A DNA stretch of 64,000 bases, from positions 2,880,001-2,944,000 of the forward strand of contig OY762492.1 of NCBI GenBank assembly GCA_963665845.2. The letters are read 5' to 3'. Source of the stretch: Candidatus Poribacteria bacterium. GTDB taxonomy: Bacteria; Poribacteria; WGA-4E; GCA-2687025. The notes beneath the pieces are model-generated. The model was not told where the DNA came from and made no database searches. It saw only the letters and a program-made list of their open reading frames with translations. Positions 7,560 to 48,474 of the stretch are shown here, one piece after another. Made by a program: the position numbers and the translations under genes. Each line of letters starts with the position of its first letter. Positions within the stretch are counted from its first letter, which is position 1.

Positions 7560-8993
7560 TTATTCGCCGGGATTATCCGGCTGCGTATCGTCATCCCCGG
7601 CGCCGTTGCCGGGGTCAGGATTGGCGGTATTCCCGCCTCCGTTGCCTGGGTTGTCTCCGCCTCCGTTGCCAGTGTTCGGGTTGTCGATGGGTCCGCCGGG
7701 ATCGGCTCCCTTGAGCGGATTTTCCCACAGCGCATGGAACATGGACGCGCCGTCCTGAATCTTCATGATGACAAGGTCTTTGACCGCGAGCCTGTTTTCA
7801 TCGAAATGAGAGATGACGGTGGCGCCGCGGTAGTCGCCGATCTTGACCAGCGCCTCAAGAATGGCGTCCCCGTCTAGCGGGTTGCTTGCGCCGACAGTGT
7901 CATCGTCGCCGCCCCCGTTTTCTGGGAGCGGGGTTGCGTTCACGCCCGCATTTTCAATTGCCTCCGCAAGGATCATCATGGCGTCAAACCCGTTTCCGGC
8001 GAAGCTGTCGGCGGGCATGCCGTAGGCGGCTTCATAAGCGGCGGCGAACTGCTGCGCTTCAGGAGTCGCGCTTGGCAGAAAGTCGATGGTGAAATAGGAG
8101 CCGTCCAGAACCGAGTTGTCGTCCAAGACGGAGAAAAGCTCGGCGGGATTGTCCCATCCGTTCGGTCCGATGAAGACGCCCTCGTAGCCGGCGGCGCGCG
8201 CTTGGTCAATAATGAGCGAAACCTCCGGCGGAAAACAGATCAAAAAACAAACGTCGGAGCCGCCGGCGGCCAGCGCCGCCGCATGCGCCGAAAAATCGAC
8301 CGTTTCGACAACATAGGTTTCTGCCGAGACGACGGAGCCGCCTGCCGCTTCAAACAGCTGCGTAAAGGACGCTGTCAACTGCTCCGAGTAAGCGTCTCCC
8401 TCCAGCGCGAGGATAGACGCCGTTTCCGCCTTCAGCTCCTTGCGCGCAAAGTCGGAGAGAATCGTCGACTGCAGCGGCAGGTTGGCGCTGATCAGCGCGG
8501 CATGGGAGTAGCTTTGCGTCACAACAGGCGATGTGGCTGCCGGGATGAACGGGGTCGTCGCGCCCGCTTGGTTCAACGCTTGACCGAGAGCGATGGAGCT
8601 GGTTGAAAAGAAGGGTCCGACAATCGCCGCGACGCCTTCGTTCTGAATCAGGTCTTGCGCCGCGCCGATGGTGGAGGCGGCGGTCGGGTACGGGTCGCCC
8701 CCTTGGTTGTCGCGCTTGACGAACTCCGCCTGGACGCCATGAATGCCGCCGTTGGCGTTGACATGCGCGAGGGCAAGCTCGGCGCCGAGGGAGAAGCTCG
8801 GGAAGTAGCCGGAAGGCTGAATCAGCCCGATTTTGACCGCATCGCCGCCAACAGGACCGGACGGGTCGGTGTCAAGCGCGTCCATCAATGAATCGCACCC
8901 GGCGATCATGAACACGCCGAGAGCCGCCGCAAGCGCAGCGATGACGCCCATTTTTGAGGTTGTTTTGAGGTTCACTGAAATCCTTTCTAACAT
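7560..8993 (-). CDS. LivJ/LivK-like substrate-binding lipoprotein, paralog 4, with G/N/D/P-rich tail
   Basis: Lipobox IAGC; KIGLI..GAELALAHVNANGGI, DFSA, GFDAMMILAEAIE. Confidence 0.85.
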   Translation of the reverse strand: MLERISVNLKTTSKMGVIAALAAALGVFMIAGCDSLMDALDTDPSGPVGGDAVKIGLIQPSGYFPSFSLGAELALAHVNANGGIHGVQAEFVKRDNQGGDPYPTAASTIGAAQDLIQNEGVAAIVGPFFSTSSIALGQALNQAGATTPFIPAATSPVVTQSYSHAALISANLPLQSTILSDFARKELKAETASILALEGDAYSEQLTASFTQLFEAAGGSVVSAETYVVETVDFSAHAAALAAGGSDVCFLICFPPEVSLIIDQARAAGYEGVFIGPNGWDNPAELFSVLDDNSVLDGSYFTIDFLPSATPEAQQFAAAYEAAYGMPADSFAGNGFDAMMILAEAIENAGVNATPLPENGGGDDDTVGASNPLDGDAILEALVKIGDYRGATVISHFDENRLAVKDLVIMKIQDGASMFHALWENPLKGADPGGPIDNPNTGNGGGDNPGNGGGNTANPDPGNGAGDDDTQPDNPGE

Positions 8994-9093
8994 AGATGTA
9001 TGGATTCAACGGCTTTCACTAAACCGATAACGAGATGGGTTGTCAATTCGTTGACTCGGCTTTTAACGATCTCTACTTTATGTATGAGGTCAG

Positions 9094-10350
9094 TTAACCG
9101 CCCTCCGCTTTCTCGCGCTGAAGCGGATACGCATCGATCGGCTCGCCTGTCTCCGGACGCGGATCCAACGGCGGCATGCGCCGCTCCGCCGCCTCGATGG
9201 CGGACGCCAGCCGCTCCCGTTTCCGCGCTTCAATATCGGCGCGCCGCTCCTGAAACGCCGGCATCGTCTCCTCGGCGAAGAGTTGAAGCGACTCGCAGAT
9301 ATGCTCATGCCGATTATTGCCCGCCTGCTGCAAAAACACGACCTGGTCAACGCCCGCCTCCTCCATCTTGAAAAGCCGCTCCCCGACCTGCTCAGGCGTT
9401 CCGATGCCGACTCCTCCGCTCTTGAAAGCGGTCCCCCCTAGCTGTTCAGGCATTTCTTTGCCGTCTCCGCCGCTTCCAGGCTTGTTGTTCCGCTCCTTAA
9501 ACCGCTTCCAGATGTCGGAGCGCCCAGGCTGATGCGACCCGTTCACATAATAATGCGCGAGCGCAAACTGAAAGAAACGAAACCCCTCCCAGCCGCGTTC
9601 GAACGCCGTCCGCTCATCCGTATGGCACGAAAAGCTGGCGACCATCGCCACATTCGGATTCACCGCCCGTCCGATCGGCCGGCATTCCGTTTCAAAGACG
9701 CGGTAGTACTCGTCCACCCACATCTTCGCGTCTTCCGGGCTGACAAACGCAAACGCCAACGCGCCCATCCCTAGACGCGCCGCCCGCCGTATCGTCTCCC
9801 GACTCGAACAAGCGACCCACAACGGCGGATGCGGTTTCTGAACAGGCTTCGGAATCACATTGCGCGCGGGCATTGAAAAATGCTCGCCTTCATAACCAGC
9901 GTACGGCGTCTGCGCCATCATCTTTGCCGTTTCGCGCACCGACTCTTCCCACATGCTGCGCTTCGCTTCCGGCGCGATGCCAAATCCCTCCAGCTCCATG
10001 CGGGACGCCGACTCGCCCGTTCCCCATTCCACGCGCCCGTTCGACACAAGGTCCAGCGTCGCGATGCGCTCCGCAATGCGGGCGGGATGGTTATACGCCG
10101 GCGGATGCTGCACAATGCCATGCCCCAAGCGTATTCGGCTCGTCCGCTGGCTGCATGCCGCCAAAAACACCTCCGGCGCGGACGAATGCGAATACTCGTC
10201 TAAAAAATGATGTTCCACCTCCCAGACGCAATCGTAACCGAGGCGGTCTGCCAGCTCCGCTTGGTCCAGCGCCTCATGGTAGAGGCGCAGCTCAGAGCCT
10301 TCGTCCCAAGGGCGCGGCAGCTGATGCTCATAAAACAGGCCAAACTTCAA
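9094..10350 (-). CDS. LLM-class flavin-dependent oxidoreductase
   Basis: MKFGLFYEHQLPRPW, WEVEHHFLDEYSHSSAPE, RIAERIATLDLVSNGRVEWGTG, PKPVQKPHPPLW. Confidence 0.92.
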   Translation of the reverse strand: MKFGLFYEHQLPRPWDEGSELRLYHEALDQAELADRLGYDCVWEVEHHFLDEYSHSSAPEVFLAACSQRTSRIRLGHGIVQHPPAYNHPARIAERIATLDLVSNGRVEWGTGESASRMELEGFGIAPEAKRSMWEESVRETAKMMAQTPYAGYEGEHFSMPARNVIPKPVQKPHPPLWVACSSRETIRRAARLGMGALAFAFVSPEDAKMWVDEYYRVFETECRPIGRAVNPNVAMVASFSCHTDERTAFERGWEGFRFFQFALAHYYVNGSHQPGRSDIWKRFKERNNKPGSGGDGKEMPEQLGGTAFKSGGVGIGTPEQVGERLFKMEEAGVDQVVFLQQAGNNRHEHICESLQLFAEETMPAFQERRADIEARKRERLASAIEAAERRMPPLDPRPETGEPIDAYPLQREKAEGG

Positions 10351-10385
10351 TCCAACGATCCTTCCGGTATTTTACAAGAGCAGGG

Positions 10386-11609
10386 TTATTCGGACGCCTT
10401 GAGCGGATTGTCCCATAGAGCGTGGAACGCGGACGCGCCGCCCTGAATCTTCATGACAACAAGGTCTTTCACCGCGAGCCTGTTCTCGTCAAAATGCGAA
10501 ATGTAGGTGGCGCCTTGGTAACCGCGTATCGCTATCAGGGCGTCCATGATCGCGCCGCCGGTCAGTTCCGCCCCGTCCGCTCCCGCCGTTTCCATCGCCT
10601 GCGCGAGAATCGACATCGCGTCGAACCCGTTGCCCGCCAGGCTGTCGACAGGCTCGTCGTAAAACGCTTCGTACGCGTCGGCGAACTGCTGCGCTTCAGG
10701 AGTCGCGCTTGGCAGAAAGTCGATGGTGAAATAGGAGCCGTCCAGAGCCGAGTTGTCGTCTAAGACGGTGTAGAACGCGCCGGGGACATCCCACCCGTTC
10801 GGGCCGATGAAGATCCCCTCATAGCCGGCGGCGCGCGCCTGTCCGATGATGAGCGGAACCTCCGGCGGAAAGCTGGTCAAGAAACAAACGTCGGAGCCGC
10901 CGGCGAGCAGCGTTTCCACATTCGCCGAGAAGTCGACCGAGGCGACAACGTAGGTTTCAGACGAGGCGACCGTCCCGCCGTCCGCTTCAAACGCCTGCGT
11001 AAAGACGGCGGTCAACGCCTGGGAGACGGCGTCCGCTTCCTGCGCGATGATGGCCGCCGTTTCCGCCTTCAGCTCCTTGCGCGCAAAGTCGGAGAGGATC
11101 GTCGCATGGAGCTGGGCGTTCGCGCTAATCAGGGCGACATTGGAGTAATACTGCGTCACGATGGGCGATGTGGACGCCGGGATGAACGGGGTTGTTCCGC
11201 CCGACTGCGTCAACGCCTGCCCAAGAGCGATGGAGTTTGTGGAAAAAACAGGTCCGATGATCGCCGTCACGCCTTCGTTTATGATCAGATCGCGCGCCGC
11301 GTCGATGGTGGAGGCGGCGGTCGGGTACGGGTCGGTTCCGATGTTGTCGCGTTCGATAAATTCCGCCTGCCTGCCGAGAATGCCGCCGCTGGCGTTGATC
11401 TGGGCGAGGGCGAGTTCGGCGCCCATAGCGAAGCTTGGGTAGGCTGCTCTAGGCTGAATCAGCCCCAGCTTGATCGTTTCATCCGAAGGCTCGGACGGAT
11501 CGGAATCGAGCGCGTCAATGAGAGTGTCGCATCCTGCAAGGATGACAATGCCGAGAGCCGCCGCAAGAGCCGCGATGATGATCATTTTTGAGGTTGATTT
11601 TATGTTCAC
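10386..11609 (-). CDS. LivJ-like substrate-binding lipoprotein, paralog 3
   Basis: Lipobox LAGC; highly similar to neighbouring paralogs. Confidence 0.85.
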   Translation of the reverse strand: MNIKSTSKMIIIAALAAALGIVILAGCDTLIDALDSDPSEPSDETIKLGLIQPRAAYPSFAMGAELALAQINASGGILGRQAEFIERDNIGTDPYPTAASTIDAARDLIINEGVTAIIGPVFSTNSIALGQALTQSGGTTPFIPASTSPIVTQYYSNVALISANAQLHATILSDFARKELKAETAAIIAQEADAVSQALTAVFTQAFEADGGTVASSETYVVASVDFSANVETLLAGGSDVCFLTSFPPEVPLIIGQARAAGYEGIFIGPNGWDVPGAFYTVLDDNSALDGSYFTIDFLPSATPEAQQFADAYEAFYDEPVDSLAGNGFDAMSILAQAMETAGADGAELTGGAIMDALIAIRGYQGATYISHFDENRLAVKDLVVMKIQGGASAFHALWDNPLKASE

Positions 11610-11703
11610 TAAAACCCTTTCTAACTTAGAGATATGGATTCAATGGCTTTCACGATGCCCAATAACGAGATGGGGCGTAAATTCGTTGATCCGACCTTTA
11701 ACT

Positions 11704-11869
11704 CCGAACTTATCCTTAAAGTTGGGACATGTCGGCATACGAACGCAGACGCCGTCCGCGACGCCTCTAGATTCCCGCTTACGCGGGAATGACGATCCGG
11801 TTGGCGACGCTTTTTCCCATGAATAAAGGCTTTGGTCATTCAGATGTCTCAACTTTACACATGAGATTG
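11704..11869. mobile_element. ~165-bp MITE-like element carrying a dRS3-like palindrome
   Basis: Inverted ends AAAGTTGGGACAT ... ATGTCTCAACTTT; same element in opposite orientation at 56640-56804. Confidence 0.7.
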
Positions 11870-11872
11870 GGG

Positions 11873-13099
11873 TTATTCGGATTCCTTGAGCGGATTGTCC
11901 CATAGAGCGTGGAACATGGACGCGCCGCCCTGAATCTTCATGACGACAAGGTCTTTCACCGCGAGCCTGTTTTCGTCAAAATGCGAGATGTAGGTGGCGC
12001 CTTGATAACCGCGTATCGCTGTCAGGGCATCCATGATCGCGCCGCCCGTGAGTTCCGCCCCGTCCGCCCCCGCCGTTTCCATCGCCTGCGCGAGAACCGA
12101 CATCGCGTCAAACCCGTTGCCCGCTAGGCTGTCGACAGGCTGTCCGTAAAACGCTTCATACGCGGCGGCGAACTGCTGCGCTTCAGGAGTCGCGCCGGGA
12201 AGAAAGTCGACGGTGAAATAGGAGCCGTCCAGAACCGAGTTGTCGTCCAAGACGGAGTAAAAATCGGCGGGGACATCCCATCCGTTCGCGCCGATGAAGA
12301 CGCCCTCATAGCCGGCGGCGCGCGCCTGGTCAATGATGAGCGGAACCTCCGGCGGAAAGCTGGTCAAGAAACAGACGTCGGAGCCGCCGGCGAGCAGCGT
12401 TTCTACATTTGCCGAAAAGTCGACCGTTTCGACAATATAGGTTTCGGTCGAGGCGGCCGTCCCGCCGTCCGCTTCAAACAGCTGCGTAAAGGCGGCGGTC
12501 AACAGCTGGGAGTAGGCGTCCTCCTTCAGCGCGAGAATGGATGCCGTTTCCGCCTTCAGCTCCTTGCGCGCAAAGTCGGAGAGGATCGCCGCATGGAGCG
12601 GTACGTTCGCGCTGACCAGGGCGACATGGGCGTAATTTTGCGTCACGATAGGCGATGTGGACGCGGGGACGAACGGGGTCGTTTCACCCGCCTGCGTCAA
12701 CGCCTGCCCAAGAGCGATGGAGCTTGTGGAAAGGACAGGTCCGACGATCGCCGTCACGCCTTCGTTCTGAATCAGGTCGCGCGCCGCATCGATGGTGGAG
12801 GCGGCGGTTGGATACGGATCGCTGCCTTGGTTGTCGCGTTCGATAAATTCCGCCTGCCTGCCAAGAATGCCGCCGCCGGCGTTGATCTGGGCAAGGGCGA
12901 GCTTGGCGCCCATAGAGAAGCTTGGGCTTGTAGGATAAATCAGCCCAATCTTGATCGTTTCACCCGCGCCAGGCTCGGACGGATCGGAATCCAGCGCGTC
13001 TATGAGGGTGTTGCATCCGCCAAAGATGACGTAGAGAGCTGCCGCAATCGCAGCGATTATAGCGGCGGGAGATCGTTTTGAGGTCGCTTTTGTGTTCAT
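11873..13099 (-). CDS. LivJ-like substrate-binding lipoprotein, paralog 2
   Basis: Lipobox FGGC; C-terminal half near-identical to paralog 3. Confidence 0.85.
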   Translation of the reverse strand: MNTKATSKRSPAAIIAAIAAALYVIFGGCNTLIDALDSDPSEPGAGETIKIGLIYPTSPSFSMGAKLALAQINAGGGILGRQAEFIERDNQGSDPYPTAASTIDAARDLIQNEGVTAIVGPVLSTSSIALGQALTQAGETTPFVPASTSPIVTQNYAHVALVSANVPLHAAILSDFARKELKAETASILALKEDAYSQLLTAAFTQLFEADGGTAASTETYIVETVDFSANVETLLAGGSDVCFLTSFPPEVPLIIDQARAAGYEGVFIGANGWDVPADFYSVLDDNSVLDGSYFTVDFLPGATPEAQQFAAAYEAFYGQPVDSLAGNGFDAMSVLAQAMETAGADGAELTGGAIMDALTAIRGYQGATYISHFDENRLAVKDLVVMKIQGGASMFHALWDNPLKESE

Positions 13100-13124
13100 G
13101 GCGCGCCTTTCTAGTCGGTTCGGT

Positions 13125-14315
13125 TTACGGCGTCAGCAGCTGATAAAAACGCATCTCGCCGTCCTGTATTGTCTGGAGAACGATCGCTTTGATCGGCTGG
13201 CGGTCTTCGTTGAAACGGACCATGGAGGTGGCGCCTTCATAGTCGGTCGTCGCGGCGAGCGCGTCCCGCACGGCGGGGGAGTCCAGGCTGCCCGTCTGCT
13301 CAATCGCCTGCGCGAGCAGCGTCATCGCGTCGTACCCCTTCGGCGATTTGCCGGACGGCGGCTCGCCGTGCACCGCTTCGTAAAGGTTGACGAAATGCTG
13401 AACGCCCGATGACGGCGCCCCGCCGGAGTAGTTGGACGTAAAGAAGGAGCCGTTCAACGGGGCGTTGTCGTCCAATGCGTTCAAGAACGTGTCGGGAGTG
13501 TACCAGCCGGAGCCGCCGATGATGTTGCCTTCATACCCCGCCGCGCGCGCCTGCTCTATGGCGAGCGGAACCTCCGGGGCGAAGCTGGCCGCCAAGATCA
13601 CGTCCGGGTTCGCGGCTAAGAGGGTCTCGATCTGCTCGGAGAAGTCGACGCTTCCAACCGCATAGCTGGCGCGCGCCGCGACCGTTCCGCCCAGCGCTTC
13701 AAAGTTGGCGGTGAACGAATCGGCGAGAATGTTCGAGTACAGGTCGTTCGCTTGGAGAAGGATGGCGGCTGTCTGCGCGCCTAAGTTCTCCGCGGAGGCG
13801 GCGAATTTGGCGAGTTCAACCCCCTGGGAGCTGGTCGTCGGAGCGACCAGGAACACATACTCGCTGGAAGCCGATACGGGCGCGGAGGTGGCGTTCGTGA
13901 TGAGTATCGTTTCGGTCTGCGCGGTGATTTCAGCCAGCTCAACGGCGTTGACCGAGAAGATGACGCCGAGGAGCGCAAAGACCCCCTCGTCCACAATCAG
14001 CTCCTGCGCCGCCTGGACGGTCGCTTCGCCGGTGGGGAAGATGTCGTCGCCTTGGTTGTCGCGGTAGATGAATTCAACCTGTCGTCCGAGGACGCCGCCT
14101 TGCGCGTTCAACTCCTGTCGGGCAAGTTCGGCTCCGGTAGAAAAGCCGTTGAAGTAGCCGCTGGGTTGTATGACGCCGATTTTGAGAGCGCCGCTTGGCT
14201 GAGGTTCTGGGTCCAGCGTTTTGACGAGCTGGTCGCATCCGAGCAGCCCCAAGGTCAACCCGACCGCCAAGAGAATCGCCGCCGGCGCGCGCCATCGTAT
14301 CGTTCGCATTTGCAT
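13125..14315 (-). CDS. LivJ-like substrate-binding lipoprotein, paralog 1 (most divergent)
   Basis: Lipobox LLGC; GAELARQELNAQGGVLGR, GYDAMTLLAQAIE. Confidence 0.85.
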   Translation of the reverse strand: MQMRTIRWRAPAAILLAVGLTLGLLGCDQLVKTLDPEPQPSGALKIGVIQPSGYFNGFSTGAELARQELNAQGGVLGRQVEFIYRDNQGDDIFPTGEATVQAAQELIVDEGVFALLGVIFSVNAVELAEITAQTETILITNATSAPVSASSEYVFLVAPTTSSQGVELAKFAASAENLGAQTAAILLQANDLYSNILADSFTANFEALGGTVAARASYAVGSVDFSEQIETLLAANPDVILAASFAPEVPLAIEQARAAGYEGNIIGGSGWYTPDTFLNALDDNAPLNGSFFTSNYSGGAPSSGVQHFVNLYEAVHGEPPSGKSPKGYDAMTLLAQAIEQTGSLDSPAVRDALAATTDYEGATSMVRFNEDRQPIKAIVLQTIQDGEMRFYQLLTP

Positions 14316-27610: not shown

Positions 27611-28468
27611 TCATCCCCGCAGCAGTTTGGCGCGCAGCACGGCGTAAAAATCGCGTTTGCGCGAACGCACCAGAGCGATTGTTTTGGAAGCGCGCCGCAC
27701 CCGCACAACGCTGCCTTCTTTGAGAGGCAGCTGCTCCTGCCCGTCCGCGCGAAGCGCGCCGCTCGGCGCCTTCGACATAACAGCGATCTCCACGCGCGCG
27801 CCGCCGGGAACCGCCATGGGACGCATGCCCAGCGTGAACGGCGAAATCGGCGTCAAAATGATCGCGTCGCAATTTGGATGCATGATCGGACCGCCCGCCG
27901 CGACCGAATAGGCGGTGGAGCCTGTCGGCGTCGCGACAATCATGCCGTCCGCCCGTATCGTGAAAGGACTCTCGTCGTTCACCTGTATCTGAAGCGCGAT
28001 GAGATGCGCGTTGTCCCTGATGACAAGGTCGTTCAGCGCGGAGCCGCGGATCATTTCGCGGTCGTCGCTTACCATCTCGTAATGGAGCATCCACCGTTCG
28101 TCCGTTTCATAATCGCCTTCCAGAACGCGCAGGAGGGCGGGATTCATCTCGGCGCGGGTTACGGAGGTCAAAAAGCCAAGGTTGCCGAGGTTGACCGCCA
28201 AAATGGGGATGTTGCCGGAACCGGCGGCGCGCGCGACGCCGAGCAGCGTTCCGTCCCCGCCTAGAGTCGCGAGCAGATCCGCCGCCGCAATGACCGATTC
28301 CAGCGGCTCCGCGCCGTTTATTCGATGGTCCGCGCCGGGCGCGTTCACGGCTCCAACAGAGGAGCTTAGCCCCTTTGAAGCGAGCCAGACCTGCGTTTCC
28401 TGCGCGGCGGCGGCCGCTTCAGGTATTGCAGGATTCACGATGATGCCGACATGTCGAAAACCGCTCAA
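27611..28468 (-). CDS. nadK: NAD+ kinase
   Basis: GGDGTLL, GNLGFL, LND, DGMIVATPTGSTAYS. Confidence 0.95.
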   Translation of the reverse strand: MSGFRHVGIIVNPAIPEAAAAAQETQVWLASKGLSSSVGAVNAPGADHRINGAEPLESVIAAADLLATLGGDGTLLGVARAAGSGNIPILAVNLGNLGFLTSVTRAEMNPALLRVLEGDYETDERWMLHYEMVSDDREMIRGSALNDLVIRDNAHLIALQIQVNDESPFTIRADGMIVATPTGSTAYSVAAGGPIMHPNCDAIILTPISPFTLGMRPMAVPGGARVEIAVMSKAPSGALRADGQEQLPLKEGSVVRVRRASKTIALVRSRKRDFYAVLRAKLLRG

Positions 28469-29103
28469 AACAACGCCTTCACCGCTATAAAACCGAGTAT
28501 CAGCAGCGCCGCAAACGCCACCGCCAGTATGTCAAAATATCGGTCGACCCAGGGCATCACCCTCGGACCGACGATGCGGACGACGCCGGCGACCAAGAAG
28601 AAACGCCCGCCCCGCCCGATGACCGACGCGCCGAGAAGGATCGGCAGCCCGACGGTCGCGTTCAACCCCGCCGCAATCGTGAACACTTTATAGGGGATTG
28701 GCGTAAAACCTGCAACCATGATCCATCCGGCGGCGCTTTCTTGATAGTATGCTAGAACCGTCTCCACCTTGCCGCCGATGTGGAGCGTCTCCAGAATCGC
28801 TTTTCCAATTGTATCGTAAAAAAGATACCCGATGTACCAGCCGAGAACCGCGCCGAGAACGGAGCCGATCGTACAGATGAGCGCGAACCAAAGCGCCCGG
28901 CGGGGCGCCGACGCCGCCAACGGAAGCAGAAGGACGTCCGGCGGTATAGGAAAAAAGGACGACTCCACAAACGCGACGCCAAACAGCCACCAAGACGCAT
29001 ACGGCGATTCGGCTAAAAGCTCCACGCGCCGCTTCATACGGCGCAGCCAGCCGAAAAAACCGCGGCGCTGGACAGGGTCGGGGGATGTTGGCGGTTGAGT
29101 CAT
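28465..29103 (-). CDS. YqaA/DedA (VTT domain) membrane protein
   Basis: AFVESSFFPIPPD, GFTPIPYKVFTIAAG, GRGGRFF. Confidence 0.9.
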   Translation of the reverse strand: MTQPPTSPDPVQRRGFFGWLRRMKRRVELLAESPYASWWLFGVAFVESSFFPIPPDVLLLPLAASAPRRALWFALICTIGSVLGAVLGWYIGYLFYDTIGKAILETLHIGGKVETVLAYYQESAAGWIMVAGFTPIPYKVFTIAAGLNATVGLPILLGASVIGRGGRFFLVAGVVRIVGPRVMPWVDRYFDILAVAFAALLILGFIAVKALF

Positions 29104-29148
29104 GTTTCCGCCCTTTTGCTGCGAGTTGTCCCGTTCATGCATTTCTTT

Positions 29149-30597
29149 CTAAAACAGGTTCAAGGTTTGATCGAGAACTTTGCCGGTGTACGGGTTTGTC
29201 ATGACGGGCATATCCGGACGCTTTTTGTTGAAATAGTCGCGTATCGACCAGAGCTGCAGGCGTCCGTATTCTACGCCGAGAACAGACGCCTTCCCGCACT
29301 TTGCCGCTTCCGCCCGCGCCTCTCTTGAGGCGACAGGGTCAAGCGTAATGAAGCAGCCGACCGCCGCCTTGTCGCGATTCAGAACGCCGATAAAGTCGCG
29401 CAGCGCGCTAAGGCTGAACCGCCCGCCCTTCACCTGCGCAAGCGCCAAGCGCGAGTCGATGTTGTCAGGTTTATGCGCCAATGTCGCCCTGCCGTCAATG
29501 CCCTTGTCGCCGACCTTCTTCGTGTTCGGCGCGAAACCTGGCAGCCGTGTGATCGCCCACGACTCAAAATCGAACGGTTTCTCCCGAGCCAGCATGCGCG
29601 CGGAAGCCATGTCGAACGGCATGCCCCTCGCCGGTATGCTCGGATCTTTCAAACGCACATTGCGGATGAGGTCGATAGCGAGGGAGGAGATGTCGATGCC
29701 CGCCCAGCGCCTGTTGAGACGCATTGCCGCTTCGATGGCCGTTCCGCAGCCGCAGAACGGGTCTAATACGACATCCTCCTCATTGCTGCTCGCCTTCACG
29801 ATCCGCTCCAACAGAGCGAGCGGCTTCTGCGTCGGATAATTCAAAAACTCCTTCGATGAGGAATGCTGCTGAAACGACATAATATCTGACCAGACAGAGG
29901 TCAACGCCACCCCAGGCGTCTCGTCAAGATACTGGCGGCGGCCGCCGGGGCGGTCGGAGCGGTAACGCCGTCCGTCTTCGTCTGCCTTGTTGAATCGCGC
30001 GATGTACTCTGGCTTATGCGGCGTATAATGTTTATTGAAAACAAAGCGCGACCGATCGTTCACATAATAAAAGATGGTGTCATGCCCGCGAATGTATCCA
30101 TGAACCGCCGATTTGTAACCCGACGCTGTTTGGAGATTCCAGATAATTTCCCGTCGGAAGTTGCGTTTGCCGAAGACCGCGTCCATGACGACTTTAAGAT
30201 AATGGCTCGCTGTCGGGTCGCAATGCAGGTAGATGGAGCCGGTCGGCTTCAAGAGGCGGCGCATATGTTCAAGGCGTTCCGCCATGTAGGTTATATACGC
30301 CAGCATGCCGCTCTCGCCCAGAACATGGTAAAGCCCAACAACTGCCTCATGCGCCGGCCGGGCGGCCGCGTCTCTAAACGCCGCATACCGTTCCACAGAG
30401 GCCGCGTCCCAATGCCAGGTGTCGTTGAACGCGCGGTACTGCGCCTTTTCCCCGTTGTCGACGGCGTTGGAGAAAAGGATGTTGTAGTTTGCGTTGGAGT
30501 TGAACGGCGGATCCAGATAGATCAGGTCGACGCATTCGTCCGCCCACTGCTCCATCCATTCGAGGCAGTCGCCGTAATATAAGGTGTTCAGCTCCAT
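29149..30597 (-). CDS. N6/N4 DNA methyltransferase (beta order) fused to Mrr-like nuclease domain, copy C
   Basis: LDPPF motif IV, variable TRD, YPTQKP, LDPFCGCGT motif I, C-terminal DKGIDG...QVK; start MELN at 30597. Confidence 0.92.
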   Translation of the reverse strand: MELNTLYYGDCLEWMEQWADECVDLIYLDPPFNSNANYNILFSNAVDNGEKAQYRAFNDTWHWDAASVERYAAFRDAAARPAHEAVVGLYHVLGESGMLAYITYMAERLEHMRRLLKPTGSIYLHCDPTASHYLKVVMDAVFGKRNFRREIIWNLQTASGYKSAVHGYIRGHDTIFYYVNDRSRFVFNKHYTPHKPEYIARFNKADEDGRRYRSDRPGGRRQYLDETPGVALTSVWSDIMSFQQHSSSKEFLNYPTQKPLALLERIVKASSNEEDVVLDPFCGCGTAIEAAMRLNRRWAGIDISSLAIDLIRNVRLKDPSIPARGMPFDMASARMLAREKPFDFESWAITRLPGFAPNTKKVGDKGIDGRATLAHKPDNIDSRLALAQVKGGRFSLSALRDFIGVLNRDKAAVGCFITLDPVASREARAEAAKCGKASVLGVEYGRLQLWSIRDYFNKKRPDMPVMTNPYTGKVLDQTLNLF

Positions 30598-30611
30598 GCC
30601 GCCGCTCCGCT

Positions 30612-32027
30612 TTAAAACAGGCTCAAGGTTTGATCGAGAACTTTGCCGGTGTACGGGTTTGTCATGACGGGCATATCCGGACGCTTCTTGTTGAAATAGT
30701 CGCGTATTGACCAGAGCTGCAGGCGTCCGTATTCCACGCCGAGAACGGACGCTTTGCCGCATTTTGCCGCTTCCGCCCGCGCCTCTCTTGACGCGACAGG
30801 GTCTAACGTGATGAAGCAGCCGACCGCCGCCTTATCGCGGTTCATAACGCCGATAAAGTCGCGCAGCGCGCTGAGGCTGAACCGTCCGCCTTTAACCTGC
30901 GCCAACGCCAAGCGCGAGTCGATGTTGTCCGGTGTATGCGCCAATGTGGCTCGACCGTCAATGCCCTTGTCGCCGACCTTCTTCGTGTTCGGCGCGAAAC
31001 CTGGAAGCCGCGTGATCGCCCATGATTCAAAATCGAACGGTTTCTCCCGGGCCAGCATACGCGCGGACGCCATGTCGAACGGCATGCCCCTCGCCGGTAT
31101 GTTCGGATCATTCAGACGCACATTGCGGATGAGGTCGATGGCGAAGGAGGAGATGTCAATGCCCGCCCATCGCCTGTTGAGCCGCATCGCCGCTTCGATG
31201 GCCGTTCCGCAACCGCAGAACGGGTCTAAGACCGCATCGCCCTCATTGCTGCTTGCCTTTACAATCCGCTCTAGCAGCGCGAGCGGTTTTTGCGTCGGAT
31301 ACCCAAGATACTCGCGGGAATTGCCCTTCAGCGGCGGGATGTATATCCAACTTTCTGGAAATTTCCCTCGCTCATCCAGTTCAACCTTTCCCGCCGCGAC
31401 CTTAGACGCTGTCGCCGCATAACCCTCTCGCGCACGGCTGCCGGGCGCGTAAGGCTGACGTATCTCGTCGGGGTTGAACGTCCACGCATCCCCGCGGGAA
31501 TACCAAAAGATAGTGTCATGCACTCTCGACAATTGACGCTGTCCCGGCGCAGAAGGTCGGCTGTAGCACCACACGATCTCATTGCGGAAGTTGCTTTTGC
31601 CGAAGACCGCGTCCATGACGATTTTAAGATAATGGCTCGCTGTCGGGTCGCAATGCAGGTAGATGGAGCCGGTCGGCTTCAACAGGCGGCGCATATGCTC
31701 TAAACGCTCCGCCATGTAAGTGATGTACGCCAGCATGCCGCTCTCGCCCAAAACGCGGCGAAGCCCAACAACCGCATCATGCGCCGGCCGGCCGGTCGCG
31801 TCTCTAAACGCCGCATACCGTTCCACAGAGGCCGCGTCCCAATGCCATGTGTCGTTGAACGCCCGGTACTGCGCCTTTTCCCCGTTGTCGACGGCGTTGG
31901 AGAAAAGAATGTTGTAATTCGCGTTTGAGTTGAACGGCGGATCCAGATAAATCAGGTCGACGCATTCGTCCGCCCACTGCTCCATCCATTCGAGGCAGTC
32001 GCCGTAATATAAGGTGTTCAGCTCCAT
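30612..32027 (-). CDS. N6/N4 DNA methyltransferase fused to Mrr-like domain, copy B
   Basis: Same frame, different TRD; start MELN at 32027 with RBS GGAG. Confidence 0.92.
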   Translation of the reverse strand: MELNTLYYGDCLEWMEQWADECVDLIYLDPPFNSNANYNILFSNAVDNGEKAQYRAFNDTWHWDAASVERYAAFRDATGRPAHDAVVGLRRVLGESGMLAYITYMAERLEHMRRLLKPTGSIYLHCDPTASHYLKIVMDAVFGKSNFRNEIVWCYSRPSAPGQRQLSRVHDTIFWYSRGDAWTFNPDEIRQPYAPGSRAREGYAATASKVAAGKVELDERGKFPESWIYIPPLKGNSREYLGYPTQKPLALLERIVKASSNEGDAVLDPFCGCGTAIEAAMRLNRRWAGIDISSFAIDLIRNVRLNDPNIPARGMPFDMASARMLAREKPFDFESWAITRLPGFAPNTKKVGDKGIDGRATLAHTPDNIDSRLALAQVKGGRFSLSALRDFIGVMNRDKAAVGCFITLDPVASREARAEAAKCGKASVLGVEYGRLQLWSIRDYFNKKRPDMPVMTNPYTGKVLDQTLSLF

Positions 32028-32041
32028 GCCGCCGCTCCGCT

Positions 32042-33625
32042 TTAAAACAGGCTCAAGGTTTGATCGAGAACTTTGCCGGTGTACGGGTTTGTCATGACGG
32101 GCATATCCGGACGCTTCTTGTTGAAATAGTCGCGTATTGACCAGAGCTGCAGGCGTCCGTATTCCACGCCGAGAACGGACGCTTTGCCGCACTTTGCCGC
32201 TTCCGCCCGCGCTTCTCTTGACGCGACAGGGTCAAGCGTGATGAAACATCCGACAGCCGCCTTGTCGCGGTTCAGAACGCCGATGAAATCGCGCAATGCG
32301 CTGAGGCTGAACCGCCCGCCCTTCACCTGCGCCAGCGCCAAGCGCGAGTCGATGTTGTCAGGTTTATGCGCCAATGTCGCCCTGCCGTCAATGCCCTTGT
32401 CGCCGACCTTCTTCGTGTTCGGCGCGAAACCTGGCAGCCGCGTGATCGCCCATGATTCAAAATCGAACGGCTTTTCCCGCGCTAACATACGCGCGGAAGC
32501 CATGTCGAACGGCATGCCCCTCGCCGGTATGCTCGGATCATTCAGGCGCACATTTCGGATGAGGTCGATCGCAAACGAGGAGATGTCAATGCCCGCCCAG
32601 CGCCTGTTGAGACGCATCGCCGCTTCGATGGCCGTCCCGCAGCCGCAGAACGGGTCTAAGACGACATCGCCCTCATTGCTGCTTGCCTTTACGATGCGTT
32701 CTAAGAGCGCGAGCGGTTTTTGCGTCGGGTATCCGAGACGTTCTTTACGGGCAACTTGCGGTATATCGCCCCAAAAATCGTTCGGGGCGACTCCCGCCCC
32801 CGGCCGCTGCTTTCTCCATATGCGCCCGTCTTCTGCAAATTCCAGCTCGCCGCTCTCGTCCAGCTCCCGCAGCCTCGTCAGGCTGACCGTCCATCCTGAC
32901 GGATGCGGCGGGGAGGCGCCCTTATACTCATAACATAAATTCGGACGGGCGCCGAGACCCGGCGGACGGAACGGACTGCGCCGCTTATACCGCCCTTTTT
33001 CGTCCGTGAACGGAAACGACGCCTCTATATCTTCATACGGCGCCGCGACAGCGGACAAATTCATCCCGCCTTCGTTCGTCTTAGAATAAAAGAGAAGCGT
33101 ATCGCTGCACCGCCCAAAACGCTTCGACGCATGCTGGCTAGTCTTTCCCGCGCCCTTGATCCGCTCCCATGTAATTTCGTTTCTAAAATTATTCATGCCG
33201 AAGACGGCGTCCATGACGACTTTAAGATAATGGCTCGCTGTCGGATCGCAATGCAGGTAGATGGATCCGGTCGGCTTCAAAAGGCGGCGCATATGTTCAA
33301 GACGCTCCGCCATGTAGGCGATGTACGCCAGCATGCCGCTCTCGCCCAGAACATGATAAAGCCCGACGACCGCTCCATGCGCCGGACGCGCCACGGCGTC
33401 TCTAAACATCGCATACCGTTCCACAGAGGCGGCGTCCCAATGCCATGTGTCGTTGAACGCGCGGTACTGCGCCTTCACTCCGTTGTCGACCGCGTTGGAG
33501 AAAAGGATGTTGTAATTCGCGTTTGAGTTGAACGGCGGATCCAGATAGATCAGGTCGACGCATTCGTCCGCCCACTGCTCCATCCATTCAAGGCAGTCGC
33601 CGTAATATAAGGTGTTCAGCTCCAT
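32042..33625 (-). CDS. N6/N4 DNA methyltransferase fused to Mrr-like domain, copy A
   Basis: Same frame, longest TRD. Confidence 0.92.
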   Translation of the reverse strand: MELNTLYYGDCLEWMEQWADECVDLIYLDPPFNSNANYNILFSNAVDNGVKAQYRAFNDTWHWDAASVERYAMFRDAVARPAHGAVVGLYHVLGESGMLAYIAYMAERLEHMRRLLKPTGSIYLHCDPTASHYLKVVMDAVFGMNNFRNEITWERIKGAGKTSQHASKRFGRCSDTLLFYSKTNEGGMNLSAVAAPYEDIEASFPFTDEKGRYKRRSPFRPPGLGARPNLCYEYKGASPPHPSGWTVSLTRLRELDESGELEFAEDGRIWRKQRPGAGVAPNDFWGDIPQVARKERLGYPTQKPLALLERIVKASSNEGDVVLDPFCGCGTAIEAAMRLNRRWAGIDISSFAIDLIRNVRLNDPSIPARGMPFDMASARMLAREKPFDFESWAITRLPGFAPNTKKVGDKGIDGRATLAHKPDNIDSRLALAQVKGGRFSLSALRDFIGVLNRDKAAVGCFITLDPVASREARAEAAKCGKASVLGVEYGRLQLWSIRDYFNKKRPDMPVMTNPYTGKVLDQTLSLF

Positions 33626-33663: not shown

Positions 33664-34635
33664 TTACGAAAACGGAACCCCCTGCGCTTCAACATAAAGA
33701 GCGTAAAGCGACCGGCTCGCGGTCATAAACAGCCGCTTGCGCTTGAGACCTCCAAAACACAGGTTCGCGCACGGTTCAGGAAGAAGTATCTGTCCAATCA
33801 TGCCGCCGTCGGGCGCGCGCACATGGACGCCGTCAAACCCGTCCCCGCCCCAGCCGGCGCCGATCCACAGGTTCCCGTCCATGTCGCACCTTATGCCGTC
33901 GGCGATCCCTGGCGACATATCGCAAAACTCGCGTCCGTTCTGAATGCGCTGTCCGTCAACCTCATACGCATAGACGGCGCGCGGACACCCAGGCTGATGC
34001 GTCACGCCCGTATCCACGACATACAGCAATTTAAAATCGGGCGAAAATGCAAGCCCGTTGGGACGCTCCAGCTCCTCCGTCAACACGGCGGCTTCTCCGC
34101 TTTCAGGGTCAAGGCGGTAGACGGCGGTCGGCAGCTCCGGCTCCGCTTGATGCCCCTCGTAATCCATCAGGATTCCGTAGCCAGGGTCGGTGAACCAGAT
34201 TGATCCGTCCGGATGGACGACAACATCGTTCGGGGCGTTCAGCCGCTTCTTCTGGTAGGCGTCCATCAGAACCGTCACGCGCCCGTCCAGCTCGGTGCGC
34301 GTCACGCGGCGCGACCCATGCTCGCATGTGATGAGACGCCCCTGGCGGTCGCGCGTGTTTCCGTTGCTGAAATGAGACGGGCTGCGGTAGACGCTCACCT
34401 GCCCGTCCTCCTCTTTCCAGCGCAGGATGCGGTCGTTCGGTATGTCGCTCCAGAGAAGGCAGCGGCTGTCTCCAAACCAGACGGGACCCTCCGCCCATCT
34501 GCAGCCGGTGTAAAGCCGCTCCACGCCGGCGTTGCCGATCGCATACTTTTTGAAGCGGTCGTCATGGGCGATCACGTTCGGATCGGGATAGGAGGCGTTC
34601 TCTGTATAAGAAAGAGACGTGTAAGAAAGAGGCAT
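33664..34635 (-). CDS. SMP-30/gluconolactonase family protein
   Basis: WAEGPVW, WSDIPNDRI, LNAPNDVV, FTDPGYG, PNGLAFSPD, DGIRCD. Confidence 0.92.
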   Translation of the reverse strand: MPLSYTSLSYTENASYPDPNVIAHDDRFKKYAIGNAGVERLYTGCRWAEGPVWFGDSRCLLWSDIPNDRILRWKEEDGQVSVYRSPSHFSNGNTRDRQGRLITCEHGSRRVTRTELDGRVTVLMDAYQKKRLNAPNDVVVHPDGSIWFTDPGYGILMDYEGHQAEPELPTAVYRLDPESGEAAVLTEELERPNGLAFSPDFKLLYVVDTGVTHQPGCPRAVYAYEVDGQRIQNGREFCDMSPGIADGIRCDMDGNLWIGAGWGGDGFDGVHVRAPDGGMIGQILLPEPCANLCFGGLKRKRLFMTASRSLYALYVEAQGVPFS

Positions 34636-34645
34636 GGCGGTTCGC

Positions 34646-35263
34646 TTACTCCTCAATCACTTGTCCGAGCTGGGCGATGGCGACCTTTCCGCCTTTGTAA
34701 TGCAAATGCCGTTCGCCGACGATCGGCTGGCTGCTGACCACCTCCACGACGCCCTGAACCGCGCCGCCCATCGCCTTGTCGCCCACCTGCCACCATCCCC
34801 ACGGTTTGACCGAGTGGCTGCGCTGTACAATGATCTTCGCCGTCTTCACCTCGCGGACGATGAAGGAGATGTGCGCGTCCGCTTCGCCGACATTCAAAAA
34901 ACGGAACCAGTCGCTGGCTCCGGCCGCCAGCTCTGGGAAAAACATGCGCCGCCCGACCGTGCGTCCAAATTCAGAAGCGCCGGGCAGGTCCAGCACCTGC
35001 GTGTCTTTGTGGCAGTGGCGTTCCCCGACGATCGGCTCCCCGTCGCTTTTCACCTCCAGCGAGATGTCCACCTTCGGCTTGTCCACCTTCGGCGTCCAGG
35101 TTTCAAACGGAGAGGTCTCTCCCTCGTCTGTCCAAACGATGTCGCCTCTGTTGTTTCGGCCGATGGCGGTCAGCTTCGCCTGCTCATTTCCGATATTGAC
35201 GATCTGCACCCAGTCATGCCACTGCGGGTGGAGGTGGGCAAAATAGAGCGTTGTGGACGGCAT
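34646..35263 (-). CDS. Hypothetical protein with two internal beta-rich repeats
   Basis: RBS GGAAGGAG; both halves contain DW..(I/L)VN/LN(I/V)G and end EVxS..PIVGERH. Confidence 0.75.
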   Translation of the reverse strand: MPSTTLYFAHLHPQWHDWVQIVNIGNEQAKLTAIGRNNRGDIVWTDEGETSPFETWTPKVDKPKVDISLEVKSDGEPIVGERHCHKDTQVLDLPGASEFGRTVGRRMFFPELAAGASDWFRFLNVGEADAHISFIVREVKTAKIIVQRSHSVKPWGWWQVGDKAMGGAVQGVVEVVSSQPIVGERHLHYKGGKVAIAQLGQVIEE

Positions 35264-35518
35264 CGTCGGTCTCCTTCCGTTGAGGACGCGCAAGTTGTCG
35301 GTACTTTTTTCGGCATTTATATGATACCATAAAACTCCGCCCTTGTCTCTTCATATCCGCCCTCGCCCTTTGAGCGCGGCGACCAGCGGAAAAGCCTACG
35401 CCCCGCGAGGCGCCGTTCCCGCCCCTGCGGTACAACGAACGGGAATCTTAGGCGCCGCAGACGACGTCCGCGTTCATGAGATTTGCCCCAACTCTAAGGG
35501 TAAGATCAGGAGAAGCGG

Positions 35519-36114: not shown

Positions 36115-36195
36115 TCATTTTCGCGGAAGCGGGAATCTTAGGCGCCGCAAACGGCGCCCGCTGGCGCGAAAACCCCGCCAGCCCTCCTTGAGAAA

Positions 36196-37220
36196 GGGGG
36201 CTATTTACTTAACTAACCTCGCGTTTCGCGCTAGTATACATGCTAGTCATGGCACAAGGAGCGATCCGATGCAGTTTAGCAGCCTTTACGATTTATTCGA
36301 GCAGATTCCAAACGAGAAAGCAGCCGCGCGGTTCTTTGAGCAGCATCGCTGGCCAGACGGCAGATGCTGTCCCAAATGCGGCTCCAAAAACACGATGCGC
36401 GTCCAAAATGCGAAACCGATGCCGTTTCGATGCCGAACCTGCCGCAAGCATTTTAGCGTCCGGACCGAAACCTTGATGGCGGAGAGCAGGTTAGCGCTGC
36501 GCAAGTGGGTCCTAGCGATTTACCTGATGCATACCTCGCGCATGGGCATCTCCAGCGTTGAGATGGCAAAGCAGATCGGAACGACGCAGAAGACGGCATG
36601 GTCCCTAGGCCACCGCATTCGAGCCGCAATGGTGAGCGACGACGAAATGCTGAGCGGCATCGTGGAGGCGGACGAGACCTACATCGGCGGCATCGAGACA
36701 AAAAAGCATCGCAGGAAAAAGCTGGGCGTCGGAAGCGGAACCAGCGGGAAGCAGCCTGTGATGGGCATGCGTCAAAGAAACGGCGAGATCCGCGCATTTC
36801 TGCTGGACAATGAGCTCAAGAAAACGCTGCAGGATGCTGTAAGGGCGAATGTGGCGCGCGGATCGTCCATTTTTACCGACGCTCTTCCGACCTACAGGGG
36901 CATGCTGGAATACACGCATGCGGTTGTGGAGCATCAGAAAGGCGAGTATGTTCGCGGCGATGTTCACACCAACAGCATCGAGTCGTTCTGGGCCGTGTTA
37001 AAACGCGGGTACCGCGGCGTTTACCATTTCATGTCGTTTAAACATCTGGGTTTATATGTCAGCGAATTCGTGTATCGTTTCAATGTTGGCATCGACAACA
37101 GCCTGGACACTCTCGGCAAACTAATTCCGCGCATGGTCGGCAAGCGTCTCACCTTTGCGGATCTGAAAGGAGAGGGCGGCGAGAAACGACAGCAAATGGC
37201 TATCTAGGAATATAGCCCCC
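36196..37220 (+). mobile_element. IS1595-family element, copy 1 (1025 bp)
   Basis: Imperfect TIRs GGGGGCTATTTACTTAACTAACC and GGGGGCTATATTCCTAGATAGCC. Confidence 0.92.
36269..37207 (+). CDS. IS1595-family transposase (intact)
   Basis: Zn ribbon CPKCGS..CRTC, HTH, VEADETYIGG, FTD, HTNSIESFWA, EFVYRFN. Confidence 0.95.
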   Translation: MQFSSLYDLFEQIPNEKAAARFFEQHRWPDGRCCPKCGSKNTMRVQNAKPMPFRCRTCRKHFSVRTETLMAESRLALRKWVLAIYLMHTSRMGISSVEMAKQIGTTQKTAWSLGHRIRAAMVSDDEMLSGIVEADETYIGGIETKKHRRKKLGVGSGTSGKQPVMGMRQRNGEIRAFLLDNELKKTLQDAVRANVARGSSIFTDALPTYRGMLEYTHAVVEHQKGEYVRGDVHTNSIESFWAVLKRGYRGVYHFMSFKHLGLYVSEFVYRFNVGIDNSLDTLGKLIPRMVGKRLTFADLKGEGGEKRQQMAI

Positions 37221-47350: not shown

Positions 47351-48377
47351 GGGGGCTATATTCCTAGATAGCCATTTGCTGTCGTTTCTCGCCGCCCTCT
47401 CCTTTCAGATCCGCAAAGGTGAGACGCTTGCCGACCATGCGCGGAATCAGTTTGCCGAGAGTGTCCAGGCTGTTGTCGATGCCAACATTGAACCGATACA
47501 TGAATTCGTTGACGTATAGACCCAGATGTTTAAACGACATGAAATGGTAAACGCCGCGGTACCCGCGTTTTAACACGGCCCAGAACGACTCGATGCTGTT
47601 GGTGTGAACATCGCCGCGAACATACTCGCCTTTCTGATGCTCCACAACCGCATGCGTGTATTCCAGCATGCCCCTGTAGGTCGGAAGAGCGTCGGTAAAA
47701 ATGGACGATCCGCGCGCCACATTCGCCCTTACAGCGTCATGCAGCGTTTTCTTTTTCATATTGTCCAGCAGAAACGCGCGGATCTCGCCGTTCCTTTGAC
47801 GCATGCCCATCACGGGCTGTTTGCCCCCGGTTCCGCTTCCGACGCGCAGGCGCTTCTTCTTATGCTTGTTTTTCTCCTGGTTCCGCCGATGTAGGTCTCG
47901 TCCATCTCCACGATGCCGCTTAGCATTTCGTCGTCGCTCACCATTGCGGCTCGAATGCGGTGGCCTAGGGACCATGCCGTCTTTTGCGTCGTTCCGATCT
48001 TTTTTGCCATCTCAACGCTGGAGATGCCCATGCGCGAGGTATGCATCAGGTAAATCGCTAGGACCCACTTGCGCAGCGCTAACCTGCTCTCCGCCATCAA
48101 GGTTTCGGTCCGGACGCTAAAATGCTTGCGGCAGGTTCGGCAGCGAAACGGCATCGGTTTCGCATTTTGGACGCGCATCGTGTTTTTGGAGCCGCATTTG
48201 GGACAGCATCTGCCGTCTGGCCAGCGATGCTGCTCAAAGAACCGCGCGGCTGCTTTCTCGTTTGGAATCTGCTCGAATAAATCGTAAAGGCTGCTAAACT
48301 GCATCGGATCGCTCCTTGTGCCATGACTAGCATGTATACTAGCGCGAAACGCGAGGTTAGTTAAGTAAGTAGTCCCC
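47351..48377 (-). mobile_element. IS1595-family element, copy 2 (1027 bp), transposase frameshifted near 47880
   Basis: Same TIRs as copy 1, inverted; ORFs 47810-48379 and 47364-47975 are the two halves. Confidence 0.92.
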
Positions 48378-48474
48378 AAGATGAAAGGATTCGTTCTTTG
48401 GAGAAAGCCGCATCATCCTTCCATCTTTTCAATCTTGCAAATCCTAGTTCAGGCAGCGCCGCGGAAACTTGCGT

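Follow-up and report, generated by a model that had tools for sequence, protein, structure and literature searches.

Within the window analyzed here, a stretch of 64,000 nucleotides from Candidatus Poribacteria (assembly GCA_963665845.2, contig OY762492.1, positions 2,880,001 to 2,944,000 of a 3.95-Mb contig), three head-to-tail genes each encode a DNA methylase fused to an Mrr-type nuclease domain, and the three copies differ in a central block that lies between two conserved parts, called the N-frame and the C-frame below. By comparing aligned sequences, we show that this array combines head-to-tail duplication, homogenization of the frames within a genome, and old alleles of the central block, the putative target recognition domain (TRD), which are common to several lineages. 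Each array protein is probably a one-chain restriction-modification (R-M) enzyme in which the central block would set the target for both methylation and cutting, with the frames recombining and the blocks being kept.

Architecture of the three fusion genes

An earlier examination of the window (hereafter the original prediction) had described three tandem methylase-Mrr fusion genes with an identical 14-bp spacer, and the open reading frames (ORFs), Pfam searches, and a comparison of the spacers all bear this description out. The three ORFs, of 527, 471, and 482 aa, are intact and all on the minus strand, and the parts of the array are as follows.

32042..33625, minus strand: gene 1, a 527-aa beta-order amino-methyltransferase with TRD T1 and a C-terminal Mrr-type PD-QxK domain (Pfam, motifs)
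30612..32027, minus strand: gene 2, 471 aa, frame as in gene 1, TRD T2 (Pfam, AlphaFold model, fold matches)
29149..30597, minus strand: gene 3, 482 aa, frame as in gene 1, TRD T3 (Pfam)
32732..33166, minus strand: variable block T1 of gene 1, 145 aa
31302..31568, minus strand: variable block T2 of gene 2, 89 aa
29839..30138, minus strand: variable block T3 of gene 3, 100 aa
32028..32041, minus strand: spacer 1, 14 bp, with a GGAG ribosome-binding-like motif
30598..30611, minus strand: spacer 2, 14 bp, same letters as spacer 1
31951..32191, minus strand: homogenized junction tract 1, 241 bp, identical to tract 2
30521..30761, minus strand: homogenized junction tract 2, 241 bp, identical to tract 1
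30645..31082, minus strand: nuclease domain of gene 2, approximately residues 316-461, with D357, Q377, and K379 (Pfam Mrr_cat, fold matches)

All three proteins score above the Pfam cut-off for both N6_N4_Mtase and Mrr_cat, and genes 1 and 3 end in domains equivalent to the nuclease domain of gene 2. Pfam, the structural model, fold matches, and motifs thus place methyltransferase and endonuclease domains in one polypeptide in all three cases, at the domain level. Gene 1 has DPPF at residues 29-32 as well as DPFCGCG, and GDKGIDG...QVK is still present in its tail; DPPF precedes DPFCGCG in the array proteins, which is the beta order. A first structure model of gene 2, built from 16 sequences, had a predicted local distance difference test score (pLDDT) of 64 and left the TRD unresolved, whereas an AlphaFold model built from 71 sequences reached a pLDDT of 83.5 with most of the TRD resolved. 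Residues 1-315 of this model match the methylases M.MboIIA, M.BceJIV, M.RsrI, and CcrM (Z 22.8-25.4, root-mean-square deviation (rmsd) 2.5-3.2), and approximately residues 316-461 match MspJI, LlaBIII, and AspBHI at a middling Z of 8.5-8.6 (rmsd 2.6-4.1, 112-124 residues aligned).

The identity of the three copies changes abruptly along the protein. Their N-frames (153 aa) are 92-94% identical and their C-frames (229 aa) 97-98%, while the central blocks T1, T2, and T3 are mutually only 17-24% identical, and blastn of each block against its own genome returned no match to the other two, as expected from the original prediction that the blocks are unrelated. The same prediction called the frames near-identical, which holds for the protein; in DNA, however, they are 91-94% identical, with a synonymous divergence (dS) of 0.23-0.38 and a ratio of nonsynonymous to synonymous divergence (dN/dS) of 0.02-0.13. 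Each central block retains the motif VIII strand (R-x-x-D-T-I/L) and W-x-x-I ahead of motif X and is, on alignment, a variable loop plus TRD within a conserved skeleton. In beta-group enzymes, DNA specificity is known to reside in the block between motifs VIII and X (PMC3467074), and by analogy we infer that the central block sets DNA specificity in the array proteins as well.

TRD alleles and the frames that carry them

The genome that holds the array contains 41 genes of the array methylase family. Of these, 15 end in an Mrr-type tail, 23 in an HNH tail, and 3 are truncated, the same methylase core and TRD family being found joined to either tail. Clustered at 80% identity, their frames give 16 families, but their TRDs, at 60%, give 39 types. 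Over their 820 pairs the identities of frame and TRD are uncorrelated (Spearman 0.05), the median TRD identity being 27% for the 52 pairs whose frames reach 80% identity and 25% for distant frames. Among 120 homologues we count 62 TRD types.

The original prediction had proposed a separate search for each TRD in distant methylase frames, and both T1 and T2 were found there. A block 80% identical to T1 occurs in another assembly, and the T1 search returned 395 cluster representatives in both Mrr- and HNH-type frames; the best 150 of these 395 include 136 with pieces of the array methylase frame, 30 with an HNH tail, and 23 with an Mrr tail, at a median N-frame identity of 40%. T2 is 93-96% identical in sister lineages and 79-83% identical in proteins whose frames are only 46-74% identical, and T3 is 96% and 87% identical in other assemblies. 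T2 had one weak match among phages, and gene 2 matched 10 plasmid records, all below 60%.

For a comparison at the DNA level we set 17 paralogues from a same-genus genome (G001) against the array genome's own set, having taken 20 regions of the 25 family matches in G001; two regions could not be parsed, among them the array-locus gene, which was handled separately. A G001 gene and an own gene with N-frames 59% identical have TRDs that agree at 94% in DNA, as anticipated by the proposal that TRDs are imported through conserved flanks; identity in this pair climbs within the FRNEIVW codons and drops after YPTQK. Two further G001 TRDs occupy another frame than in the array genome. The shared TRDs have a dS of 0.31-0.46, with a nonsynonymous divergence (dN) of 0.01-0.04 in five of the seven pairs and 0.13 in the other two. 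The same TRD is therefore present in non-orthologous frames, in DNA for the family paralogues and in protein for T1 and T2, and these alignments show that TRDs move between distant frames, with crossovers in the FRNEIVW and YPTQK codons.

The array locus itself follows the same pattern. In G001 one gene stands between the same flanks and carries a fourth TRD, T4, which is 38% identical to T1, in keeping with the original idea that the locus can take up other TRDs; the comparison shows an allele replaced within the array, T1 here and T4 in sister lineages. The frame tree groups by genome, with TRD alleles common to several lineages, and approximately unbiased (AU) tests, on groups defined after the first frame tree had been inspected, reject a grouping of the frames by TRD type (p = 1e-6, 2e-11, and 3e-18). 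The sole fully homogenized stretch is the 241 bp across the two junctions, a length that none of 20,000 permutations reached. Judged by tree and alignment, the pattern is one of concerted evolution around old TRD alleles.

Tandem copies recur elsewhere in this genome and in another Poribacteria genome. A second array in the same genome (C1:1185860-1191150) has three methylase-HNH genes joined through identical 12-bp spacers and followed, past a 101-aa ORF that has no Pfam match, by a fourth copy; its N-frames are 80-86% identical, its C-frames 87-96%, and its TRDs 30-58%, and in G001 this locus has one gene between the same flanks. A single-chromosome Candidatus Poribacteria genome (G034) has 45 matches and eight same-strand tandem pairs, seven with N-frames 71-99% and TRDs 17-36% identical and one with a TRD 71% identical. 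Against the 25 matches in G001, six other genomes of the same taxonomic family (64-95% complete) have none or one. Of 89 loci from many phyla, none is head-to-tail and three have a second copy nearby, which points to a mostly solitary fusion; metagenome loci gave a clear pair in one of 80. Short flanks are common among these loci, a length of 7 kb being reached by 65 of 80 and by 36 of 80. A scan of Joint Genome Institute (JGI) metagenomes found distant relatives only, the best at 59%.

Putative one-chain enzymes and the alternatives

A one-chain R-M enzyme is the likeliest reading because no partner gene was found and because the tail position is taken by either of two unrelated nuclease folds. 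A scan of 50 neighbor ORFs at 20 loci (23 of the 41 genes) found neither a restriction endonuclease nor a res family; these ORFs are mostly housekeeping genes, though 15 have no Pfam match and could each be an unrecognized partner. The only ResIII-family match within 3 kb of any paralogue is a DSHCT-type helicase. The pairing of one methylase core and TRD family with either an Mrr or an HNH tail suggests that the tail serves as a nuclease.

Beta-class methylases form dimers. Each array protein would, as such a dimer, methylate a different adenine or cytosine motif, and the dimer would pair two PD-QxK domains so as to cut unmethylated incoming DNA near the site. If one TRD directs both activities, one recombination event would give a new, self-protected specificity, and duplication followed by TRD replacement would add specificities while the old ones are retained. 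Selection for many specificities, whether by phage, mobile DNA, or addiction, would then retain the alleles as gene conversion erases the differences between frames. A more ambitious reading, which we offer tentatively and regard as doubtful, is that of an undescribed R-M subtype of beta-order single-chain methylase-nucleases with a portable cassette of 80-165 aa, whose arrays would serve as an immune repertoire with old alleles under balancing selection, interchangeable gene-converted frames, and mixed dimers reading more targets than there are genes.

Several observations count against the one-chain reading and the evolutionary pattern attached to it. The best solved structures are 26-31% identical, in the methylase part only, and no close characterized relative was found. 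The tail has a weak, sub-threshold match to the inactive-nuclease family NA-iREase1 (E value 2e-4 to 4e-4), and the catalytic Lys is lost in two of the 15 own Mrr copies and the His in one of 22 HNH copies. Avoided 6-mers number 17 of 2,047 in a relative without a family match (G023, a 400-kb sample), 13 of approximately 1,830 in the own genome, and 21 of 2,016 in G034. Homogenization of the frames is, by these measures, slow and partial, because the dS among the copies equals that of housekeeping genes between species (0.23-0.33 for four neighboring genes between the own genome and G001). The clade of the three own frames is supported at only 87/90, the AU groups were chosen with a tree in hand, and co-location in other assemblies is deduced from a common contig size, with gene order not seen: 28,347 bp for proteins of the T4, T2, and T3 types, 203,077 bp for the T1 and T3 types, and 3.66 Mb for at least two C-frames. 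Lastly, no contig in four sequencing runs (X1 to X4, from one study that may include the source sample) spans the whole array, nor does any long read.

Part of this evidence fits an alternative in which the proteins only methylate: they would be solitary methylases of differing specificity that shield the chromosome from other restriction systems or regulate genes, with a tail that binds DNA, nicks it, or is silent. Some 38 active nucleases per cell would be a heavy load, the NA-iREase1 match points the same way, and catalytic residues or the entire tail are missing from a few paralogues. Site avoidance specific to the family, moreover, was not found. The own genome strongly avoids GGCC, GAGCCC/GGGCAC, ACGCGT, CCCGAG/CTCGAG, CTCAG, and ACAGT and has only one C5 methylase, but this avoidance is not assignable to the array family, and it was dropped as support for nuclease activity on being found equally strong in G023, which lacks the family. 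In contrast, all three array genes retain the nuclease motif, as do 13 of the 15 own Mrr-type genes and 119 of 120 homologues. Purifying selection on the tail is strong (dS 0.30-0.32, dN 0.003-0.014, dN/dS 0.01-0.04) and is shown for the methylase and the TRD as well. Together with the two unrelated nuclease folds at the same position, this makes methylation without restriction rather unlikely in our estimation.

A second alternative keeps the nuclease but changes its target, so that each protein would mark its own motif while the Mrr-type tail cuts foreign-methylated DNA as Type IV enzymes do. The Mrr_cat match and the PD-QxK site agree with it, as do MspJI and AspBHI among the fold matches. 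However, neither a winged-helix nor an SRA modification-reading domain was found beside the PD-QxK domain by Pfam or in the model, and the fold equally matches LlaBIII, which cuts unmethylated sites (LlaGI layout, as set out in PMC2790903). Since the three tails are 97-98% identical, tripling the gene would also add nothing to such a function, and we give this alternative little credence.

The remaining alternatives concern not the activity of the proteins but the state of the locus. It might be a fast-switching one, a shufflon-like or phase-variable reservoir with frequent change of copy number or TRD order within a population. Long direct repeats would permit unequal crossover, G001 has one copy, and slippery G tracts interrupt relatives elsewhere. 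The window has no noteworthy inverted repeats (the longest inverted pair being 35 nt at 74%), the array genes are in direct orientation, and no simple sequence repeats or long homopolymers were found in the three genes, which led us to reject repeat-based phase variation of the array. No recombinase or res gene was found among the window ORFs by Pfam, some ORFs having no family match at all, in line with the original prediction that neither an invertase nor a res gene lies nearby. Runs X1, X2, and X3 show no switching within populations, as all carry identical TRDs at flank depth (contigs drop rare variants), and frames that differ at a dS of about 0.3 are likewise not those of a rapidly reshuffled locus. 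We therefore think fast switching improbable. The original idea of a recombination-driven array stands as far as recombination between the copies goes (the 241-bp tract, the AU tests) and falls for fast shuffling, the alleles being old and the three runs invariant; of the expansion and contraction it foresaw, contraction to one copy was seen only in G001, a 40-contig draft, and may equally be an assembly collapse. The array is likely a slowly restocked set, with alleles turning over slowly.

There is very little chance that the array is an assembly artifact, made by stringing together the alleles that three strains carry at one locus, even with no contig across it and with one gene at the locus in G001. 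In runs X1, X2, and X3 the T1, T2, and T3 unitigs have a depth of 22-43, within the range of unique flanks of the same run and with zero differing letters (in X1, 27.4, 24.4, and 23.9 against flanks of 28.7 and 21.5); each TRD is thus at full flank depth and not at about a third of it, which leads us to reject a three-strain concatenation. Run X4 is shallow and has only T3 among the pieces listed. The same 14-bp spacer joins a gene end to a gene start in a contig of two of four other runs (X5 and X7, both from one other study); in X5 this junction contig is at depth 56.5 and the flanks at 27-29, the ratio expected of two junctions. The X5 TRD is of the T4 type, and a T4-like contig is also present in sponge metagenome run X6. 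The check for concatenated strain alleles that accompanied the original prediction is answered by these depths and independent junction contigs, and tandem pairs recur in the single-chromosome genome G034.

Known systems, other family members, and neighboring genes

Contrary to the original prediction, the array is not a one-off undescribed system: it is a local case of the 41-gene family, and tandem beta-order methylases with different TRDs are known in Mycoplasma bovis PG45 (PMC5909438). The triple mod locus described there (M1-M3.Mbo45ORF167P) has three co-localized mod alleles with different TRDs and GA repeats, and resembles the array in having three beta-order methylase genes in which the 5' and 3' parts are conserved and the TRD between them varies; the origin proposed in that account is duplication followed by TRD acquisition. 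Unlike this Type III mod locus with its GA tracts, the array has no repeat switch, no res gene was found with it in the window, and each gene has its own nuclease domain; homogenization of frames and sharing of alleles across lineages are what we show for the Poribacteria array. In Type III mod genes of Helicobacter pylori, the TRD, located between motifs IV-VIII and X-III, moves among non-orthologous beta-group frames via short motif codons (Furuta and Kobayashi 2012, PMC3467074), much as TRDs move by recombination in conserved motif codons in the array family, but from five loci per genome, as given there, compared with 41 genes here, and the Poribacteria proteins are fused to nucleases. The array methylases share the beta order and a TRD between motifs VIII and X with Type III mod proteins in general, while the linked res gene with helicase and nuclease was not found in the window.

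The closest precedent for the fusion is BtgZI, an atypical Type IIC enzyme with an N-terminal alpha-class methylase and a C-terminal PD-QxK nuclease variant in one chain (PMC4081073). Likened by description, the array proteins have the same N-terminal methylase and C-terminal PD-QxK nuclease, but they are of beta order with an internal exchangeable TRD, and many paralogues are HNH-tailed. In other Type IIC/IIG enzymes, such as MmeI, the nuclease is N-terminal, the methylase is gamma-class, and the specificity module is C-terminal or separate; like the proposed array enzymes, they tie restriction and methylation to one specificity module, some without a partner methylase (PMC4081073). The array proteins differ from typical members of these types in their beta order and C-terminal nuclease. 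They also differ from hsdS shufflons, being directly oriented with no inverted repeats of note and no invertase found, and from Type IV Mrr enzymes, as defined in PMC12707154, in having no modification-reading domain. Movement of domains in Type I and IIG systems is treated in PMC3077401 and Mrr in PMC12707154. Each ingredient has a precedent, then, in BtgZI, in the movement of Type III mod TRDs, and in the M. bovis PG45 triple locus, and the array works like these known systems yet lacks a defining feature of each family. Literature searches confined to open-access papers, with REBASE left out, turned up no paper on beta-order methylases fused to an Mrr or HNH domain or on arrays of such genes, and none that joins these ingredients on a comparable scale.

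If active, these proteins would be a compact one-gene R-M design of 400-560 aa with its specificity in one exchangeable cassette, 39 cassette types occurring in a single 4-Mb genome, and they would offer a clear example, in bacteria, of concerted evolution around alleles common to lineages. The array amounts to a natural controlled experiment, with three proteins nearly identical save for the cassette, in which the specificity of a very large enzyme family can be tested directly. COG0863-type methylases and Type II R-M genes are signatures of sponge symbionts (PMC4453008, PMC5099237); as excerpted, these surveys give gene counts only and do not include fused nucleases, TRD exchange, or tandem arrays. 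Active proteins of the array family would supply a mechanism for the methylase excess reported there.

Several other members of the family are broken or rearranged. At C1:1548802-1551255 an N-terminal methylase piece from an HNH-associated frame family and a C-terminal catalytic piece flank an Mrr-type gene that runs the other way, as if this gene had been inserted in the TRD region of another family member. A degenerate tandem pair at C1:3761498-3763420 consists of a copy without a nuclease tail and, immediately upstream, a C-half methylase ORF, and a frameshifted near-duplicate (98-100%) of the gene at C1:1299441 occurs at C3:13109-14146, on a contig that may be a redundant strain variant. 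Relatives are broken by G8-G11 tracts in the N-frame in both copies of a G034 tandem pair and in two Rhodothermales genomes (L228; L067 and L074 near 5430); these tracts, which are absent from the array, suggest ON/OFF switching in those relatives. Two paralogues (L053, 472-1860; L270, 3746-5044) adjoin AAA_15/AAA_21 ATPase genes and a small partner ORF and are possibly parts of defense modules.

The array lies between two genes that also flank the single gene of G001, and its immediate neighbors are as follows.

33664..34656, minus strand: SMP-30/gluconolactonase gene, the upstream flank, 38 bp ahead of gene 1; same neighbor in G001
28465..29142, minus strand: YqaA/VTT-like membrane protein gene, the downstream flank, 6 bp past gene 3, with a VTT match under the Pfam cut-off

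Beyond the YqaA-like gene come an NAD kinase gene and a recN-like gene, again with the same neighbors in G001; yqaA and recN are names that we take to apply. Because the gaps along the locus, from the gluconolactonase gene to gene 1 through to the YqaA-like gene, are 38, 14, 14, and 6 bp, the array genes are presumably co-transcribed within a housekeeping operon. Nine of the 14 bases of spacer 1 agree with the leader of gene 1, and a scan for promoters and terminators was no richer than shuffles (3 versus 3.3 and 7 versus 7.3).

Upstream of the gluconolactonase gene, a conserved 215-aa ORF (34646-35293) has no Pfam match and a dN of 0.014 against G001, and synteny with G001 stops at position 35352. 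Two IS1595-family transposase genes follow at 36188-37207 and 47367-48379, the second broken into two ORFs. The closest transposase is 2,563 bp from the array, past three genes, which places the array outside the IS1595 element, and only one of 40 paralogues has a transposase within 3 kb; carriage of the array by IS1595 is thus not supported. Elsewhere in the window, at 7563-14315, four paralogous genes for branched-chain amino-acid-type substrate-binding proteins stand in a row, with an LLM oxidoreductase gene between them.

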